Below are positions 4,184 to 15,408 of a DNA stretch of 24,000 bases, piece after piece. Origin of the DNA: Mycobacteriales bacterium (GTDB taxonomy: Bacteria > Actinomycetota > Actinomycetes > Mycobacteriales > QHCD01). Made by a program: the position numbers and the translations under genes. Location of the stretch: assembly GCA_036267955.1 (NCBI GenBank), contig DATAVB010000161.1, positions 36,095 through 60,094 of the forward strand, in the 5' to 3' direction. The stretch's first letter is position 1; each line of letters opens with the position of its first letter. The notes beneath the pieces are model-generated. The model ran no database searches. It was not told the origin of the DNA and saw nothing but the letters and a program-made list of their open reading frames with translations.

Positions 4184-5211
4184 TGGAGCAGGAGACGCTG
4201 CTGGACATTCGCGATCTGCGAATGGAGTTCCGGTCCGGCGGCAGCTTTCTCGGTCGCCGCAAGAAAATGCGCGTCGGCGCGGTCGACGGGGTGAATCTGA
4301 CCGTACGGGCCGGCGAAACCCTCGGCCTGGTGGGGGAATCCGGCTGCGGAAAGACCACCCTTGGGCGCTGCGTTCTGCGGGCCTACAAACCGAGCTCCGG
4401 CGAGATGAACTACACCCGCAGCGACGGCTCCACCGTGGATCTGGCGAAGGTGGGGAACGCCGAGCTGCGGTCCTACCGCCGGGAGATCCGAACCGTCTTC
4501 CAGGATCCCAACTCCTCGCTCAACCCGCGGATGACCGTGTTGCAGCTGGTTGGCGAGCCGCTGCGGGTCAACAAACTGGCCAGTGGCAGTGAGCTGACCG
4601 ACCGGGTCGCCGAGACGCTGCGCCTGGTCGGGCTCCGGCCGGAATACATGCGGCGTTATCCACACGCCTTCTCCGGCGGCGAACGGCAGCGGATCGGCAT
4701 CGCGCGCGCCCTGGTCACCCGGCCGCGGCTGGTGATCGCCGACGAAGCGGTCAGTGCACTGGACGTCTCGGTGCGCAGCCAGATCCTCAATCTGCTGCAG
4801 GATCTGCAGCAGCAGCTGGGCCTGACCTACATCTTCGTGTCGCACGACCTGTCGGTCATCCAGCACCTCTGCGACCGGGTCGCGGTGATGTACGTCGGCC
4901 AGATCGTGGAGACCTCCGAGACCGACGAGCTTTTCGCGCAACCCAAGCACCCCTATACCGAGACGCTGCTCGCGGCGCTGCCGCGCCCGGATCCGCGGCT
5001 GCGTAAGAAGGAACGTGCCGCCACCCTGCGCGGTGAGGTCCCCGATCCGGCCAACCCGCCGGACGGCTGCCGGTTCCACCCGCGGTGCCCGTACGCCCGG
5101 GACAACTGCCAGGAGCGGGTGCCGGACCTGGCCGCCATCACCCCCGAGCACCACGCCCGCTGCATCTACGCCACCGAGCTGGAGCTGCGAGGCGTGGCCA
5201 CCTCGGTGTGA
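4183..5211 (+). CDS. ABC transporter ATP-binding protein, DppF/OppF type
   Basis: Walker [10 protein letters not shown], signature FSGGERQR, Walker [13 protein letters not shown], tail [10 protein letters not shown] chose the ATG at 4183, which overlaps the upstream TGA (ATGA coupling). The listed ORF start at 4036 would overlap 147 nt of the preceding gene. Confidence 0.9.
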
Positions 5212-7192: not shown

Positions 7193-7256
7193 GCACCCGC
7201 CTTTCCCAGCACCGCCCCGTTTCCCCGCACCGCCCCGTTTCCCCGCACCCCCTTTT
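7193..7256. repeat. C-rich 18-bp tandem repeat (GCACCGCCCCGTTTCCCC), two perfect plus two degenerate units
   Basis: Perfect units at 7209-7226 and 7227-7244. Degenerate units at 7193-7208 and 7245-7256. The minus strand reads G5-N3-G4-N4-G4-N6-G4-N4-G4. Confidence 0.9.
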
Positions 7257-7315
7257 CATGATCGTGATCGGTTTTTGGTTGCTATAGCCCCAACCACCGA
7301 TCACGATCATGAAAA
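7253..7315. repeat. Palindromic intergenic element, copy 1 (19-bp perfect arms)
   Basis: TTTTCATGATCGTGATCGG (7253-7271) is the exact reverse complement of CCGATCACGATCATGAAAA (7297-7315). The centre carries GGTTGCTATAGC (7277-7288). It is homologous to the element at 19696-19746. Confidence 0.9.
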
Positions 7316-9294: not shown

Positions 9295-12200
9295 TCACGA
9301 CGCGCACACCATTTCCAACGCATCGCCGTACGGCATCTCGACACCCTGCCGGTAGGCGGTTTCGAAAGCCGCTCCCAGCTCGGCCCGCGCCTGTTCGATC
9401 GTGGCAACCACATCGGGGTTGCCACGATCGGGCAGGCCTCTGGCGCTTTCGGCGATGCCGGTCAGGACCGCCGCCCGGTGCAGGTCGCCGCCGGCCCGGG
9501 CGACGAGCGCCAGCCCGTCGATCGCCGTCCCCGCGAAGGCCCGGTCCTCGAACTTGTCGGCCACCCGCACCGCCTCCCGGAAGAGCTCGCCGGCCCGGTC
9601 CAGATTTCCGTCGGCGACCTCGACGTGGGCCAGCCCGACCAGGAAGAACGACCGCACCTGGTCGGGCATCACGTTGACGGTGCGGGATCCCTCCAGCGCC
9701 AACTCGGCCCGCCGCCGCGCCTCGACCAGGTCGCCCGTGCGGCGCGCCACCTCACTCGCGACCGACTCGACGAACAGCACGCTCTCCGGCGCCCCGTATC
9801 GGCGAACCAACAACGACGCCCGCTCGACGGTGGCCCGGGCCGCCTCGACCTGCCCGGTCCGGATCTCGTTCACCGCCCGCTGGCTCAGGCCCTGGCCGAC
9901 GTCCTCGAACGCCTCGAGCTCGGTGAGCATGTCGATCGCCTCCTGCTGCATGGCCAGCGTCGCCTGCAGATCGCCGTGCAGCTCCCGGATCGAGGTCACC
10001 GACTCCAGGGTGGTGGCCATCCCCCAGCGGTCGCCGATAACGCGGAACTCCGCGAGCGCCTCGACGAACTCCTCCTCCGCCTCGCGAGCCCGCCCCTGAT
10101 TGGTGTACGAGTGACCGAGCATCATCCGGGCGACGGCTCTGGTCCACGGATCGGCATGCCGCAGCGCGACCGCGATCTCGTCGTCGACCTGGCTCAGCGG
10201 GCGGCGCGCGGCCATCGCCGCGATCGGGCGCAACAGGCCGAGCAACGGGTGGGTGTCGATCAGCCCGGGGTCGGCCCGCACGAGTCTCATCGCCCGGCCG
10301 AGCGCCCAGCCGGCTTCCCTGGGCTCGCCGGAGTTGCCGTGCAGCATCGCGCGGCCGGCGTGCACCATCGCCGTCTGCCTCGGTGGCCGTTCGCCGGGCA
10401 CCGAAACCGCCTCGGTCAGCCAGGTGCGCGCCTCGGCTCGGTAGCCCCGCATGCTCCAGAACCAGATGAGCGCGGCGCACAGTCGCACGGCGCCGGTCGC
10501 GTCCCGGGTCTCGGCGAAGAAGTGCAGCGCCGCCAGCATGTTGTCGTGCTCGACCTGGATTCGGCGCAACCACTGGAGTTGCTCGGGTCGACGGGTGTGT
10601 GGCTCGGTCTCCTCGGCCAGGGCCAGGAAGTACGCCGCGTGCCGCTCCTGTACGGTGGGCTGCTCGCCGACGATGTCCAGCTGTTCCTGGCTGTACGCAC
10701 GGATCGTCTCCAGCATCCGGTAGCGACCGCCGAGCTCGGCGTTGCCGACCGCCTGCACCAGCGACTTGTCCACCAGTGCGGAGAGCAGATCGACGATGTC
10801 CTCGACCGGCAGGTCGTCGTCGGCGCACACTGCCTCGGCGCTGTCCAGGGTCACTCCGCCGGGGAAGACCGACAGCCGTCGGGCCAGAATCCGTTCGGGC
10901 TTCTCCAACAGATCCCAGCTCCAGTCCACCACCGCCCGCAGCGTCTGGTGCCGCGGCAGCGCGGCGCGACTGCCCCCGGTGAGCAGCCGGAACCGGTTGT
11001 CCAGGCGAGCCGCCAATTCGTCGGGGGTCAGCGACCGCAGCCGGGCGGCGGCCAGCTCAATCGCCAACGGCATGCCGTCCAGCCGGCGGCAGATGTCGTT
11101 CACTGTGTCGTTCACTGTGTCGTTCACTGTGTCGTTCACTGTGTCGTTCACTGTGTCGGTCATGGTCTCGAGCCGGAAATCAGGTCGGACGGCGATCGCC
11201 CGCTCGGTGAACAGCTGCACCGCCGGTGCCGCGCCGTCGACCGTCAGCGGCAATACGGGCCGCAGTGTCTCGCCGGAGATCGCCAACGGCTCCCGGCTGG
11301 TGGCGATGATCCGCAACTGGGCGCAGCGGGCGAGCAGGGTGTCGGCCAGCTCGGCGGCCGCGGCGATGAGGTGCTCGCAGTTGTCCAGGACCACCAGCAG
11401 TCGCTTACCGGACAGGGCCGCCACCAGCCGGCCCACGATGTCCCGACTGTCCGGGCCGGACTCCAGCAATGCGCGTTCCCGCAGACCGAGGGCCGACAGT
11501 ACGGCCTGGGCAACGCCGGCCGGATCGGTCACCGGAGCGAGTTCCACCATCCAGACGCCGTCCGGCAGCTCCTCCAGCAGCCGGGCGCCAACCTCGCTGG
11601 CCAGCCGGGTCTTACCCGCGCCGCCCGGCCCGACCAGGGTCACCAACCGCTGCGCACCGAGCAGTCCGGTGATCGCCGCGACGTCCTCGGCCCGGCCGAC
11701 GAAGCTGGTGAGCTGGGCGCGGAGGTTCGTCGGTGCGACGCCGGTTTCGGCGGGTACGGCCAACTCGCCGCGGAGCACGGCCAGCTGCAGTTTCTGCAGC
11801 TCGTCGGACGGGTCCACGCCCAGTTCGTCGGCGAGCAGCTCGCGGGCCTGTTCGTACGACGCGAGCGCGTCGGCCTGCCGGCCCGTCCGGTAGAGGGCGG
11901 TGATGTGCTGGCCGCGCAGCCGCTCCCGCAGCGGGTGTGCGCCGACCAGATCGTCGAGCTCGGCGATGACGTCGGCATGCCCGCCCAGCTCCAGGTCTGC
12001 TGCGATCCGGTCCTCGATCGCCGCGAGCCGCAGGTCCGCCAACCGCCGAGCGGCGGCCGCCGCGAACGGAGCCTCGCCGACGTCGGCCAGGGCCGGGCCG
12101 CGCCAGAGGGCGAGGCCTGCTCGAAGGGCAGCCCGGGCACCGCGCGGGTTACCGTCCCGCAGTGCCGTCCGTCCCTCGTCGACCTGCCGCTCGAATTCGG

Positions 12201-12486
12201 CGACGTCGGTGCTTTCGGCGGCGAGCCGGTAACCGGCCGGCGTCGAACCGATCAGCTCGGCGTCACCGAGCGAGCGACGTAGCCGGGAGACCAGGGACTG
12301 CAGCGCATTCGCCGCGCCGGCCGGCGGATTGTCGCTCCACAATGCGTCGACCAGAGCTTCGCCCGAGACCGTACGGCCGGCGTCCAGGGCGAGCCGGGCC
12401 AGCAGCGCGCGCAACCGGGCACCGCCGATCTCGATCGGCCGGCCGTCGACGCGCACCTGCAGCGGACCCAGCAGCGAACAGTGCAC
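9295..12486 (-). CDS. AfsR/SARP-family transcriptional regulator with NB-ARC (STAND) ATPase and TPR domains
   Basis: N-terminus LLGPLQVRVDGRPIEIGGARLRALLARLAL...AANALQSLVSRLRRSLG is an OmpR-type winged helix. A BTAD follows (WRGPALADV...LRLAAIEDRIAADLELG). Walker A GPGGAGKTRLA, Walker B LLVVLDNCEH, LDGMPLAIELAAARL motif, then about 450 aa of TPR-like helical repeats. GTG start at 12486. Confidence 0.9.
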   Translation of the reverse strand: MHCSLLGPLQVRVDGRPIEIGGARLRALLARLALDAGRTVSGEALVDALWSDNPPAGAANALQSLVSRLRRSLGDAELIGSTPAGYRLAAESTDVAEFERQVDEGRTALRDGNPRGARAALRAGLALWRGPALADVGEAPFAAAAARRLADLRLAAIEDRIAADLELGGHADVIAELDDLVGAHPLRERLRGQHITALYRTGRQADALASYEQARELLADELGVDPSDELQKLQLAVLRGELAVPAETGVAPTNLRAQLTSFVGRAEDVAAITGLLGAQRLVTLVGPGGAGKTRLASEVGARLLEELPDGVWMVELAPVTDPAGVAQAVLSALGLRERALLESGPDSRDIVGRLVAALSGKRLLVVLDNCEHLIAAAAELADTLLARCAQLRIIATSREPLAISGETLRPVLPLTVDGAAPAVQLFTERAIAVRPDFRLETMTDTVNDTVNDTVNDTVNDTVNDICRRLDGMPLAIELAAARLRSLTPDELAARLDNRFRLLTGGSRAALPRHQTLRAVVDWSWDLLEKPERILARRLSVFPGGVTLDSAEAVCADDDLPVEDIVDLLSALVDKSLVQAVGNAELGGRYRMLETIRAYSQEQLDIVGEQPTVQERHAAYFLALAEETEPHTRRPEQLQWLRRIQVEHDNMLAALHFFAETRDATGAVRLCAALIWFWSMRGYRAEARTWLTEAVSVPGERPPRQTAMVHAGRAMLHGNSGEPREAGWALGRAMRLVRADPGLIDTHPLLGLLRPIAAMAARRPLSQVDDEIAVALRHADPWTRAVARMMLGHSYTNQGRAREAEEEFVEALAEFRVIGDRWGMATTLESVTSIRELHGDLQATLAMQQEAIDMLTELEAFEDVGQGLSQRAVNEIRTGQVEAARATVERASLLVRRYGAPESVLFVESVASEVARRTGDLVEARRRAELALEGSRTVNVMPDQVRSFFLVGLAHVEVADGNLDRAGELFREAVRVADKFEDRAFAGTAIDGLALVARAGGDLHRAAVLTGIAESARGLPDRGNPDVVATIEQARAELGAAFETAYRQGVEMPYGDALEMVCAS
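11095..11166 (-). repeat. In-frame 12-bp tandem repeat inside the AfsR-like CDS (5 perfect units + 1 degenerate), encoding (TVND)x5
   Basis: GTCGTTCACTGT is repeated perfectly at 11095-11154, followed by the degenerate unit GTCGGTCATGGT at 11155-11166. The minus strand reads ACC ATG ACC GAC then (ACA GTG AAC GAC)x5, i.e. TMTD(TVND)5. Confidence 0.95.
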
Positions 12487-12511
12487 GGTCCCAGCCTGTC
12501 AGATCCCCCCG

Positions 12512-12696
12512 GATCGGAGTGCGCTTTGCCCGTTGCGAGCGACGTCGGTCCCGATCGAAGCGCGCTTTACCCGGTCGGGCTGGCGTCGTCCTCGATCGAA
12601 GCGCGCTTTAACCGGCCGCCATGCGCGCCTGCTCGATCGGAGCGCGCTTTACCCGCGCCAATTAGCGTGCCGCGCCGGGTCGAGCGCACTCCGATC
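12512..12696. repeat. Four 41-bp-phased repeat units with a conserved ~21-bp palindromic core, plus one inverted partial copy
   Basis: Cores: GATCGGAGTGCGCTTTGCCCG (12512), GATCGAAGCGCGCTTTACCCG (12553), GATCGAAGCGCGCTTTAACCG (12594), GATCGGAGCGCGCTTTACCCG (12635). The period is exactly 41 bp. The inverted copy GAGCGCACTCCGATC is at 12682-12696. The whole array lies in the 229-bp gap between the secreted-protein stop and the AfsR-like GTG. Confidence 0.9.
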
Positions 12697-12715
12697 GGTG
12701 GTGGTGGTAGGCGAG

Positions 12716-13189
12716 CTACTTGGTCCGCTCGACGACCGACCGGGCCGTGTCCGCACCCAACAGGGGCCCGGTGACGATGCGGGCCTTCGCGCCCTTGATC
12801 AGCTTGCCCGCCGACGACTTCTGCTTGTCGATCCGCACCCGGGTCTTCGCGTCCAACACATAGGTGTGCTGATAGTGGTCGGGACTGATCAGGGTGATCC
12901 GGGTGGGGCTGACGGCGCTGATTGTGCCGCGCTGTACGAGGACGGTGCGGTAGCCCTGTTTGGTCTTGACGGTCAGCTCGCCGTGCACCGCCCGCCGGGC
13001 GAGCCGGGCCTTCTGGCGGGTGTTCTTCTGTTGCGTGTCCGCCACGGTCGTGGCGGTGGTGGCCGACCCGGCCGCGGTCCCGTGCGGCGTCGGACCATTG
13101 GAGTCGGCGGCGTACGCGACACCGCTACCGACCCCGGCCGCCAGCACCACGGCCGCGCCGCCGACGGCGAATGAACGTCGCTTCATCAT
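12716..13189 (-). CDS. Small secreted protein of unknown function (Sec signal peptide)
   Basis: MMKRRSFAVGGAAVVLAAGVGSGVAYA is a canonical signal peptide with an AYA-A cleavage site. GGAGA lies 3 nt (first ATG, 13189) or 6 nt (second ATG, 13186) upstream. The mature part has a beta-rich look (VHGELTVKTKQGYRTVLVQRGTISAV). The listed 247-aa ORF start at 13459 would overlap the divergent regulator gene. Confidence 0.7.
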   Translation of the reverse strand: MMKRRSFAVGGAAVVLAAGVGSGVAYAADSNGPTPHGTAAGSATTATTVADTQQKNTRQKARLARRAVHGELTVKTKQGYRTVLVQRGTISAVSPTRITLISPDHYQHTYVLDAKTRVRIDKQKSSAGKLIKGAKARIVTGPLLGADTARSVVERTK

Positions 13190-13354
13190 GTGTCTCCATT
13201 CCAATCGGGTTCTTCCTGCTGACGAACCCACCCTGGCTGCACCACGTACGCGGACCTTCACCGTCATGTTCGGAGTATGTAAGGACACGCAGGCGGCTGA
13301 CCCGCGCGGTCGACCGGGTGGAGCAGGATCGCTGCGACGAGATGGGAGAGGTGC

Positions 13355-14035
13355 ATGAGCGAGTCGCAAACCGGTGGGCTGGTCCTCGTCATCGAGGACG
13401 AGGGCGTCATCGCCGACCTGCAACGGCTGTACCTGACCCGGGAGGGGTTCGTGGTGCACGTCGAGACGACCGGCGAGGGCGGCCTGGCCGCGGCCCGGTC
13501 ACTTCGGCCGGCCGCGATCGTGCTGGACATCCGGCTGCCCGGCATGGACGGCATGACGCTCTGCCGGACGCTGCGCGCGGAGGGCAACAGCACGCCGATC
13601 ATCTTCGTCACCGCCCGGGACGACGAGGTGGACCGGATCGTCGGTCTGGAGTTGGGCGGCGATGACTACCTGACCAAGCCGTTCTCGCCGCGCGAACTCG
13701 TCGCCCGGATCAAGGCAGTGCTGCGCCGTACCAACCCGACTCAGGCCGCGCCGATCGTGATCGGCGGCCTGCAGGTCGACATCGGTGCCCGGCGGACCAG
13801 CATCGACGGGGTCGCGGTGGAGCTGACCGCCACCGAGTTCGATCTGCTGGCGTTCCTGCTGACCCGACCTGGTCAGGTCTTCTCCCGGGAGCAGCTGCTC
13901 GCGCACGTCTGGGGATATGAGGGCCTGGGCAGCCGGACGGTCGACGTACACGTCGCGCAGGTCCGCGGCAAGCTCGGTGAGGCCAGCCCGATCCGGACCG
14001 TGCGCGGCGTCGGGTACGCAGCGGAACGTCCATGA
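13355..14035 (+). CDS. Two-component response regulator, OmpR/PhoB family
   Basis: Receiver domain (LVIEDE, phospho-acceptor context IVLDIRLPGMDG, DDYLTKPF) plus a winged-helix output domain (LTATEFDLLAFLLTRPGQVFSREQLL...VDVHVAQVRGKL). Confidence 0.93.
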   Translation: MSESQTGGLVLVIEDEGVIADLQRLYLTREGFVVHVETTGEGGLAAARSLRPAAIVLDIRLPGMDGMTLCRTLRAEGNSTPIIFVTARDDEVDRIVGLELGGDDYLTKPFSPRELVARIKAVLRRTNPTQAAPIVIGGLQVDIGARRTSIDGVAVELTATEFDLLAFLLTRPGQVFSREQLLAHVWGYEGLGSRTVDVHVAQVRGKLGEASPIRTVRGVGYAAERP

Positions 14036-15408
14036 TCACCCGTACCCGCCGCAGCCTGGCGTTCCGGATCGGTGTCGTCACGGTCGTGGTCGCGCTGATC
14101 TCGGTGCTGGTCGCCGCGCTGGTCTCGCTCGGCCTGGTCCGCGGCGTCGCGCAGCGGGAGGGACGCCGCCAACTGGGCCGCGAGGCGGTGCTGGTCGCGG
14201 GGCTGGCACCGCGCCGGACCGTGGCACCGAAGGTCCGCACTCTGCTGGTGAAGTCCGGGATCCGGCTCGTCCTGGTAGGCGCCGACGGTACGACCCGGGG
14301 CCGGTTGCCGCTGCCGGCCGGCGACGTGCGCGCGCTGCTGGCCGGCCGGGACATCTCCCGGGTCGAGACGCTGGACGGCCAGCGGGTCTATGTCGAGGGC
14401 CGGCCGCAGGACGGCGGCGGTGCGGTGGCCCTGGTGCAGACGGCGCGGCTGACCCCGAACGACCAGCGAGAATTCTTCCGGCGGGAGCTGCTCGCCTGCC
14501 TGATCGGGCTGGTGGTCGCGGGCGTCGCTGGTGCCCTGGTGGCGCGCCGGCTGGCCCGCCCGCTGCAGCACACCGCCGCCGGCGCCCGGCGGCTTGCGGC
14601 CGGCGAGCGGTCGGTGCGGATCACGCCGGAGGGCCCGGCCGAGGTGGCTGAGGTGGCCGACGCGGTCAACACCCTCGCCGGCGAGCTGGAGCACAGCGAG
14701 GCGCGACAGCAGGACTTTCTGCTCTCGGTATCGCATGAGCTGCGTACCCCGTTGACGGCGATCACTGGCTTCTCCGAGGCGTTGGCCGACGGCGTCACGA
14801 CCGGGGATCAGGTGCCACCGGTCGGTGCCGTACTGCTCGCCGAGTCACGCCGGCTGGACCGGCTCATCGGAGATCTGCTCGATCTGGCCCGGCTGCAGGC
14901 GGCTGACTTCCCGATCGAGCCGGTGCCGGTCGATCTGCGCGGGCTGCTGCGGGAGAGCGCGACGGTCTGGGGCGCGCGCTGCGCCTCGGTGGGCGTGCTG
15001 TTCCGGCTCGAGGAACCGCCCGATCCGCTGTTGGTCACTACGGATCCGACCCGGGTACGGCAGATCATCGACGGTCTGGCCGAGAACGCACTCCGGGTAA
15101 CGCCGGCCGGCGCGCCGATCGTGCTCGCGGTCCGGGCCGAGGGGGCGGAGGCGGTGGTTGAGGTACGGGACGGCGGTCCGGGCCTGACGCCTCAGGATTT
15201 CGCCGATGCCTTCAACGGTTCGGTGCTCTACCAGCGTTATCGCGGGATCCGCCGCGTCGGCACCGGCCTCGGGCTGGCGATCGTGCACCGGTTGGCGATC
15301 CGGCTGGGCGGCGGTGCGGTGGCGGGGCCGGCCCCGGAGGGCGGCGCCCGATTCGCCGTGCGGTTACCGCGGACGCAGCGGCCATCCGGAGAAAGCGCCA
15401 GAATCTGA
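14032..15408 (+). CDS. Sensor histidine kinase (two TM segments, HAMP, HisKA, HATPase_c)
   Basis: ATGA overlap with the response regulator gene. H-box FLLSVSHELRTPLTAITGF. N-box ENALRVTP. G-boxes DGGPGL and GTGLGLAIV. Two hydrophobic spans flank a ~120-aa extracytoplasmic loop. Confidence 0.92.
   Translation: MITRTRRSLAFRIGVVTVVVALISVLVAALVSLGLVRGVAQREGRRQLGREAVLVAGLAPRRTVAPKVRTLLVKSGIRLVLVGADGTTRGRLPLPAGDVRALLAGRDISRVETLDGQRVYVEGRPQDGGGAVALVQTARLTPNDQREFFRRELLACLIGLVVAGVAGALVARRLARPLQHTAAGARRLAAGERSVRITPEGPAEVAEVADAVNTLAGELEHSEARQQDFLLSVSHELRTPLTAITGFSEALADGVTTGDQVPPVGAVLLAESRRLDRLIGDLLDLARLQAADFPIEPVPVDLRGLLRESATVWGARCASVGVLFRLEEPPDPLLVTTDPTRVRQIIDGLAENALRVTPAGAPIVLAVRAEGAEAVVEVRDGGPGLTPQDFADAFNGSVLYQRYRGIRRVGTGLGLAIVHRLAIRLGGGAVAGPAPEGGARFAVRLPRTQRPSGESARI

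Follow-up and report, generated by a model that had tools for sequence, protein, structure and literature searches.

In an uncultured high-GC actinomycete, a 21-bp motif is arrayed at an exact spacing of 41 bp immediately upstream of the gene for an AfsR-like regulator. The DNA analysed, referred to as the window, is a stretch of 24,000 nucleotides from a Mycobacteriales contig (DATAVB010000161.1), and the coordinates of the array and its surroundings in this window are listed in Table 1. Judged by comparison with the nearest relatives, the cores of the array and their spacing are under constraint, and the array is still changing in copy number. We tentatively propose, with somewhat less than even confidence, that the array is a young, lineage-specific set of DNA-level binding sites for one candidate sequence-specific protein, and that it may control the promoter of the AfsR-like gene.

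A repeat finder placed four direct cores at start-to-start distances of 41, 41 and 41 bp, which agrees with the preliminary description of this DNA, and the pattern GATCGRAGYGCGCTTTRMCCG matched all four with 0 mismatches. At ≤3 mismatches the pattern had five matches in the window, all inside the array, while shuffled sequences predicted 0.02. Tandem Repeats Finder assigned the array 3.5 copies of a 41-bp period, with a score of 135. The fifth core is inverted and has 2 mismatches to the pattern. It had first been placed at 12682-12696; its identity to unit 1 over the first 14 nt (GATCGGAGTGCGCT) was borne out, but its extent was not, since the copy covers the full 21 bp. It starts at 12635 + 41 and is therefore in the same 41-bp phase as units 1-4. 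The gap between unit 1 and the GTG is 25 nt (12487-12511) and the gap between the stop codon of the upstream gene and the inverted copy is 19 nt (12697-12715), both within 1 nt of the distances given earlier. No promoter-like hexamers were seen within the units on inspection of the array sequence.

Table 1. Positions of the array, its flanks and the neighboring genes in the 24,000-nt window.
Feature	Position	Strand	Description
Core unit 1 (proximal, D1)	12512..12532	+	GATCGGAGTGCGCTTTGCCCG; in gene orientation CGGGCAAAGCGCACTCCGATC, -46 to -26 relative to the GTG
Core unit 2	12553..12573	+	GATCGAAGCGCGCTTTACCCG, equals the consensus
Core unit 3	12594..12614	+	GATCGAAGCGCGCTTTAACCG
Core unit 4	12635..12655	+	GATCGGAGCGCGCTTTACCCG; 3' arm of the RNA hairpin on the minus-strand transcript
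Core unit 5, inverted	12676..12696	-	GATCGGAGTGCGCTCGACCCG on the minus strand; in 41-bp phase
Four 20-bp spacers	12533-12552, 12574-12593, 12615-12634, 12656-12675	.	sequence diverged, length invariant
Linker, stop codon to inverted copy	12697..12715	-	ctcgcctaccaccaccacc, CCA/CCG-rich run
Long hairpin on the minus-strand transcript, units 5 and 4	12634..12697	-	no U-tract after it
Conserved block	12487..12504	-	ATCTGACAGGCTGGGACC; directly 5' of the GTG; TG at 12501-12500, then CAGGCT at 12498-12493
AfsR-like large SARP regulator gene	9295..12486	-	Trans_reg_C (winged-helix), BTAD, NB-ARC/AAA and TPR (Pfam); 1063 aa; GTG start
Small secreted protein gene, upstream	12716..13189	-	157 aa from MMKRRSF...; signal-peptide-like N-terminus
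OmpR-family response regulator gene	13355-14035	+	divergent from the small gene; conserved part of the gene cluster (Pfam, NCBIfam)
HAMP/HisKA histidine kinase gene	14032-15408	+	conserved part of the gene cluster (Pfam, NCBIfam)

Within the array, conservation was concentrated on the cores, as had been claimed. Only 4 of 21 core columns are variable, compared with 18 of 20 spacer columns (Fisher p = 6e-6), and pairwise likeness is 81-95% for the cores and 20-50% for the spacers. The mutual identity of the spacers is 37.5% versus ~31% for shuffled spacers (p about 0.04-0.08).

The same organism was found in JGI metagenomes (loci L074 and L077) by exact-sequence look-up of window proteins. The array of L074 is identical to that of the window. 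L077 has 3 differences from the window in 1386 bp, all of them within unit 5 and the adjoining spacer; one is a change of the plus-strand C at 12681 into A, which brings unit 5 nearer to the consensus and adds one pair to the hairpin described below. The copy number of the array was the same in the three independent assemblies, and a coding repeat (TGTCGTTCACTG) 1.4 kb away differed by 3 units. The stable copy number is therefore not the behaviour of a hypervariable minisatellite.

Two relatives, L082 and L083, were reached via homologues of the small protein encoded upstream. L082 (~84-86% DNA identity) contains the inverted copy and three direct cores, and it corresponds to the window minus exactly one 41-bp unit, namely core 2 or 3 together with spacer S2; the assembly is apparently error-prone, with 75 gap openings in 6.3 kb. 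L083 (~92% DNA identity) contains two direct cores and no inverted copy. The distal of the two shares bases with the small gene's stop codon, and 20 of its 21 positions agree with the inverted copy when the latter is reverse-complemented. The unit counts are thus 2, 4 and 5 for L083, L082 and the window, respectively, and in the three lineages (window/L074/L077, L082 and L083) the 41-bp grid is exact for all units, the inverted ones included. The proximal units of L082 and L083 retain the GCGCAC variant of window unit 1, and likewise its distance of 7 nt to an ATCTG block in front of the start codon. The linker differs as well: in the window it holds a ggtggtggtgg run at 12697-12711 (CCA/CCG repeats in gene orientation), in L082 the run (10264-10304) is 12 bp longer, and in L083 the linker is missing.

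Between the window and L082, 78 of 84 core positions (93%) are identical, whereas the orthologous spacers match at 43 of 60 (72%; 13/20, 13/20 and 17/20 for the individual spacers; p = 0.001). For the flanking AfsR-like gene of the same pair, the identical fraction is 0.71 at third codon positions and 0.90-0.94 at first and second positions. Compared with these codon positions, the cores therefore behaved like constrained sites and the spacers like neutral ones, and between lineages the spacers evolved about 4 times faster than the core. None of the 8 spacers contains an indel (0/8), despite 28-63% substitution. Unequal recombination accounts for the changes by whole units, but not for the likeness confined to the cores or for the fixed spacer length. 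The exact spacing in every spacer and in two related lineages favours a spacing-dependent function at the DNA level, such as cooperative protein binding.

These comparisons also bear on a non-adaptive origin, in which the array would be a MIRU-type minisatellite, that is, a functionless 41-bp unit expanded by slippage or unequal recombination that may be one of a dispersed family. The position between two cistrons of an actinobacterium beside a two-component system, as for the first MIRUs, is consistent with this explanation, and so are the whole-unit differences in copy number between related lineages, the lack of the array at more distant orthologous loci and the small amount of lineage DNA covered by the core search, only ~32 kb. 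However, slippage and unequal crossing-over would homogenise whole units, and here only the 21-bp core is conserved, with spacers near saturation. In addition, the copy number was constant in three assemblies while the nearby variable-number repeat differed, more than one copy of the core was found in none of 185,579 species representatives, and no small open reading frames overlap the flanking start and stop codons on inspection of the window sequence. We consider a neutral minisatellite doubtful.

The core was found to be asymmetric, since a position weight matrix (PWM) built from the copies scored them at 30-36 bits on one strand, against 5-11 bits on the opposite strand. The preliminary description had assigned a palindrome to each core and a dimeric regulator to the array. 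In the sequence, the palindrome AGCGCGCT is present in units 2-4 only, units 1 and 5 having AGTGCGCT instead, and it is retained in 4 of the 12 core copies collected across the lineage. For a core as asymmetric as this one, the palindromic site was overstated.

On the side of the regulator gene, the array ends close to a conserved block. The best homologues of the regulator (61, 58 and 57% protein identity) lie at orthologous loci that have no array (L068, L069 and L070). When the four orthologues were aligned, ATCTGnnAnGCTGnnnnnGTG before the start codon was the sole conserved intergenic stretch, and ATCTG, A, GCTG and GTG were invariant in all of them. The pre-GTG block is identical in L077, L082 and L083, and all three lineages have 7 nt between the proximal core and the ATCTGnnAnGCT / ATCTGACAGGCT block; in the window and both relatives, the last core is followed by 7 nt and then by ATCTGACAGGCTGGGAC. 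The block has the pattern TG-n-CAGGCT. A gap of 6 nt separates the hexamer from the GTG, and every orthologue retains the hexamer's A at position 2 and T at position 6. From this pattern we infer an extended -10-like element of a transcript with little or no leader; with the G of the GTG as the first transcribed base, it would lie at -15 to -7. Leaderless mRNA is common in actinobacteria. On this reading, the proximal core would cover the -35 position, where CACTCC is found and no -35 hexamer is present, and a scan of the region for consensus promoters and terminators gave no hit.

In the proposed mechanism, asymmetric sites of 21-22 bp on a strict 41-bp grid would be positioned directly upstream of the regulator's own promoter. 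A protein bound to the proximal core would either activate or block RNA polymerase; with ~22 bp and an overlap with the -35 region, the core agrees with what has been reported for a SARP dimer, both in footprint and in position (PMC10936776). The cores further upstream, at intervals of about 4 helical turns, could support the cooperative loading of further copies of the protein. The distal inverted core could form a hairpin of -46 kcal/mol on a read-through transcript and thereby probably uncouple the regulator from the upstream gene. Three candidate binders may be considered, in descending order: the AfsR-like protein itself, a winged-helix protein that could oligomerise through its NOD domain, the neighboring OmpR-type regulator, and a factor encoded elsewhere. 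A more far-reaching version sees in the array an evolvable "regulatory minisatellite". A STAND-type SARP that oligomerises, or the response regulator that is its partner, would occupy head-to-tail sites four turns apart, and populations would tune or switch the expression of the regulator through the gain, loss or inversion of whole 41-bp units. We think this version quite unlikely; if it is true, the binding geometry would be one that has not been described for SARPs or OmpR-family proteins.

Several points weigh against a binding-site array upstream of the promoter. No core-like sequence was found at the three syntenic orthologous loci (57-61% identity). The extra units are dispensable or merely modulatory, since these orthologues are array-less and the copy number varies. 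The absence of the array from orthologous regulators, which the preliminary description had named as an outcome adverse to its proposal, is thus true for three loci at 57-61% identity and false for L082 and L083. No second occurrence of the motif was found in the window, in 20 kb of L082, in L083 or in L068-L070, and the best PWM match outside the array was ≤8 bits; hence there is no evidence for a regulon. A dispersed family restricted to the lineage may lie beyond the ~32 kb searched. Moreover, with 10.5 bp to a turn, a 41-bp period amounts to 3.9 turns and not to an exact multiple, and the sites would drift by ~34 degrees per unit unless the DNA were overwound or wrapped, so the earlier statement that all sites face the same side of the DNA was not upheld. 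Finally, the pre-GTG block could instead be the ribosome-binding region of a gene in a co-transcribed operon.

The inverted copy gives the minus-strand transcript a long hairpin between units 5 and 4 (-46 kcal/mol, z = -5.6), the start of which is 18 nt from the small gene's stop codon (~30 nt in L082). In L077, the substitution in unit 5 closes a G.A mismatch in the stem and the hairpin reaches -46.8 kcal/mol. The fold of the array as a whole, in which units 5 and 1 are paired, was likewise more stable than that of shuffles (z = -3.4), and the array-less orthologues showed no significant structure at the corresponding position. All of this would be expected of an RNA-level element, a transcribed intercistronic array whose long hairpin terminates or attenuates read-through or shields the upstream mRNA from 3' exonucleases, the extra direct copies being alternative partners. 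On the other hand, L083 has two conserved direct cores with no inverted copy and no hairpin, and one hairpin partner would be enough, but conservation is equal for all direct cores. The folding energies of single cores, -3.5 to -10.7 kcal/mol, do not surpass those of shuffles (z > 0), and RNA pairing has no need of an exact 41-nt spacing. There is no U-tract, the terminator scan was empty, and no Rfam family reached its threshold for the array (the best were mir-2058 with 22.7 bits against a threshold of 90 and Ms_IGR-7 with 18 bits against 45). Because L083 keeps the cores without the inverted copy, and because a single partner suffices, single cores are unfolded and RNA pairing is indifferent to the exact period, the hairpin is not the function that the arrays have in common, and we regard an RNA-level element as unlikely. 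The stem between unit 4 and the inverted copy that was noted at the outset therefore exists, but not as a conserved function; it probably matters for read-through.

The orientation of the terminal units raises the question of mobility. The outermost units are the most alike (14/14) and inverted, in L082 as well, and, set against the orthologues, the array behaves like DNA inserted after the stop codon and ahead of the conserved ATCTG block. The distal unit is direct in L083 and inverted in L082 and the window, with the match of 20/21 to the reverse complement given above. The array might thus be the remnant of a mobile or recombining element, either a 185-bp MITE-like insertion with units 1 and 5 as terminal inverted repeats and the internal units as subterminal transposase-binding sites, or an invertible segment with the same two repeats at its ends. 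However, no target-site duplication was seen at the array borders by sequence inspection, no second copy was present in any sequence searched, no transposase or recombinase gene lies in the 24-kb window, and one orientation was found in three assemblies. The inverted copy is on the same 41-bp grid as the others, which fits an array and not two independent ends. A mobile remnant is in our view very improbable.

With constant 21-bp repeats, near-random 20-bp spacers, an exact period and a deviant terminal repeat, the array also has the outline of a degenerate orphan CRISPR-like array. Known CRISPR repeats and spacers are longer than the 21 bp and 20 bp here. The terminal copy is inverted and not merely degenerate, the spacers are orthologous between lineages and point-substituted (by the spacer matches given above) instead of replaced, and no cas gene or domain was found in the 24 kb. 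This explanation is effectively refuted.

Searches for the core elsewhere left the array as the one known locus. The core was not found elsewhere in the 24-kb window or in ~8 kb of non-syntenic DNA from a relative. A core scan of one genome per species for 185,579 species yielded 67 loci, each with a single match and mostly coding; among them were IEARF codons, and some loci were one gene conserved across Streptomyces or Sphingomonas species. No array and no multi-copy core was found in these species-representative genomes. There was no blastn match in plasmids (PLSDB) or phages, viral contigs searched with three patterns gave nothing or single coding matches, and a literature search for core sequence strings returned primers and unrelated items only. 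The statement of the preliminary description that no element of this architecture has been described thus stood for Rfam, plasmids, phages, viral contigs and 185,579 reference genomes, and the generic dispersed repeat that it had considered as an alternative was not seen in any sequence searched. The core search covered about 32 kb of lineage DNA, the look-ups via window proteins having lengthened the source DNA by only ~1.6 kb.

Metagenome matches with two phased cores at three loci (L071-L073, with tandem repeats of 42, 42 and 36 bp) were judged unrelated to the array, having in common with it only the 14-mer demanded by the pattern, and their number was estimated to be within chance expectation. 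The same 42-bp tandem repeat, GGCGAGCCTGTCGGCGGATCGGAGTGCGCTTGGGTTCGGCAG-like, was observed at L071 69-175 and L073 13363-13459 (metagenome Ga0208370), where the first copy is at a contig end and the second at the end of the locus within a 67.6-kb contig; the 14-mer common to this repeat and the array is GATCGGAGYGCGCT. This suggests that the GGCGAGCCTGTCGGCGGATCGGAGTGCGCTTGGGTTCGGCAG-like repeat is present at more than one locus in another GC-rich organism.

As to the genes around the array, the regulator protein scored well below the cut-off of the NCBIfam AfsR equivalog. The small protein has no family match in Pfam or NCBIfam; its homologues are rare, and a gene caller predicted the same small gene in L074. 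An ABC-2 exporter pair lies beyond the regulator gene and converges on it. The synteny of the response regulator and kinase genes is kept in L068, L083 and L084. The gene order of the array-less orthologues is kinase, regulator, small protein, AfsR-like, ABC-2 and ABC, and the distances from the small gene to the AfsR-like gene are 65, 30 and 30 bp. A candidate for an ancestral single site in L068 (AATTGGCCGGGCGCAACCTCC, compared with AATTGGCGCGGGTAAAGCGCGCTCC in the window) was too weak and was rejected, the PWM score there being <8 bits. The AfsR-like homologues P0004, P0011 and P0012 (≤51% identity) were paralogues in other gene contexts and uninformative. L084 encodes an orthologue of the small protein with 65% identity, and the contig ends 58 bp after its stop codon; in this stretch (4502-4559), the small gene is followed by a classical hairpin and a T-run (GCAGAAAGGCCGGCC...GGCCGGCTTTTCTGC), i.e., an ordinary terminator. 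In L082 (11679-15163), the AfsR-like frame apparently stops after ~2.1 kb, and MoxR (AAA_3), DUF58 and BatA genes come next in place of the ABC-2 exporter pair, which reflects either a rearrangement or a misassembly of the error-prone contig.

Other repeats were observed in the cluster. The 12-bp tandem repeat TGTCGTTCACTG (x5.8, 98% identity, window 11094-11162) is inside the AfsR-like gene and encodes (TVND)n in the NB-ARC region. The gene of this STAND regulator thus carries a variable-number repeat that is coding and in frame; it is three units shorter in L074, and L082 is essentially without it. An 18-bp direct repeat, TTTCCCCGCACCGCCCCG (x2.7), at 7202-7249 is followed by an AT-rich inverted repeat of 26 nt (7253-7278 / 7290-7315, 92% complementary, 11-nt loop), the right arm of which spans the ATG (7309) of the ABC ATPase gene. 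The repeats at 7202-7315 could serve the exporter operon as an operator, or as a hairpin that sequesters the start codon. At the corresponding position, L068 carries another inverted repeat, of 13 nt. In the divergent promoter region between the response regulator gene and the small gene, the block CTTCACCgtcatGTTCGGAGTATGTAAGG (13256-13284) is conserved in five lineages, array-less ones included, and its half-site spacing of 11-12 bp is that of OmpR-family binding sites; on these features it is probably the response regulator's own binding site. GTTCGGAGT and GATCGGAGT, the end of units 1 and 5, are alike at 8 of 9 positions; a shared 7-mer is estimated to arise by chance about once in five such comparisons, and this likeness is only a weak lead on the binder.

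Large SARP-type regulators control antibiotic and stress programmes in actinomycetes. If the cores bind protein, the locus would show the birth and growth of a multi-site operator, from no sites in the distant orthologues to two and four in the relatives and five in the window, with constraint already acting on the sites and their spacing. As binding sites, they would provide a natural series for how the output of a large SARP depends on the number of sites and on their helical phasing. If the array is a dispersed or neutral repeat instead, it would be a local curiosity only.

Among known systems, SARP/AfsR boxes (e.g., the 22-bp afs box of the Streptomyces coelicolor afsS promoter) resemble the array in their head-to-tail, non-palindromic sites, in a size of ~22 bp, in the overlap with the -35 region and in the poor -35 hexamer, and the array adjoins a large SARP gene with NOD and TPR. 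A SARP box comprises 22 bp with two 11-bp direct repeats and overlaps the -35 element; boxes are spaced by 11 or 22 bp, and the 3' repeat lies 8 bp from the -10 element (PMC10936776). In contrast, the spacing here is 41 bp in every unit of three lineages. The two halves of the core (CGGGTAAAGCG / CGCTTCGATCG) match at 6 of 11 positions, and at 4 of 11 in unit 1, where ~3.3 are expected from composition. The putative -10 element CAGGCT (12498-12493) is 13 bp away from the end of the proximal core, which lies ~7 bp further upstream than the afs box (-40 to -19) and belongs to a set of five sites, one of them inverted. The resemblance to a SARP heptad, which had been noted in the preliminary description, therefore fails the published rules for spacing and, with the putative -10 element, for register (PMC10936776).

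MIRUs are tandem repeats of 46-101 bp found at 41 loci in one genome (PMC3914561), and a two-component operon was where the first of them were discovered (Supply 1997, cited in PMC3914561). Like them, the array consists of actinobacterial tandem units of tens of bp, is intercistronic beside a two-component system, and varies in copy number between lineages; it lies between co-directional genes that are 30-65 bp apart in the orthologues and has 2, 4 or 5 units. MIRUs are alike over the whole unit, however, whereas the unit here is 41 bp, below their size range, and only its 21-bp core is conserved. Furthermore, there is one known locus with one inverted copy, and the copy number is stable within the sampled population.

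In intergenic position between co-directional genes, and in an inverted pair that forms a long hairpin as in a REPIN, the array is similar to REP/BIME/REPIN elements. It differs from them in that a single core is no palindrome that folds on itself, only one of the five copies is inverted, and no dispersal was seen in the sequence searched. Inverted termini are shared with MITEs and transposon ends, but no duplication was seen at the borders and no further copy in the sequence searched.

The nearest architectural analogue is provided by plasmid iteron and sopC arrays, which have units of ~41-43 bp, a conserved protein-binding core, a strict period and cooperative loading. The sopC region of the F plasmid contains twelve 43-bp repeats, each with a SopB site. 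The array differs in being chromosomal, within a conserved gene cluster that has no rep or par genes, its spacers are not conserved, and the array has no similarity to any plasmid in PLSDB. The array belongs to no described family, although as a phased binding-site array or as an intercistronic actinobacterial repeat it is not unprecedented.

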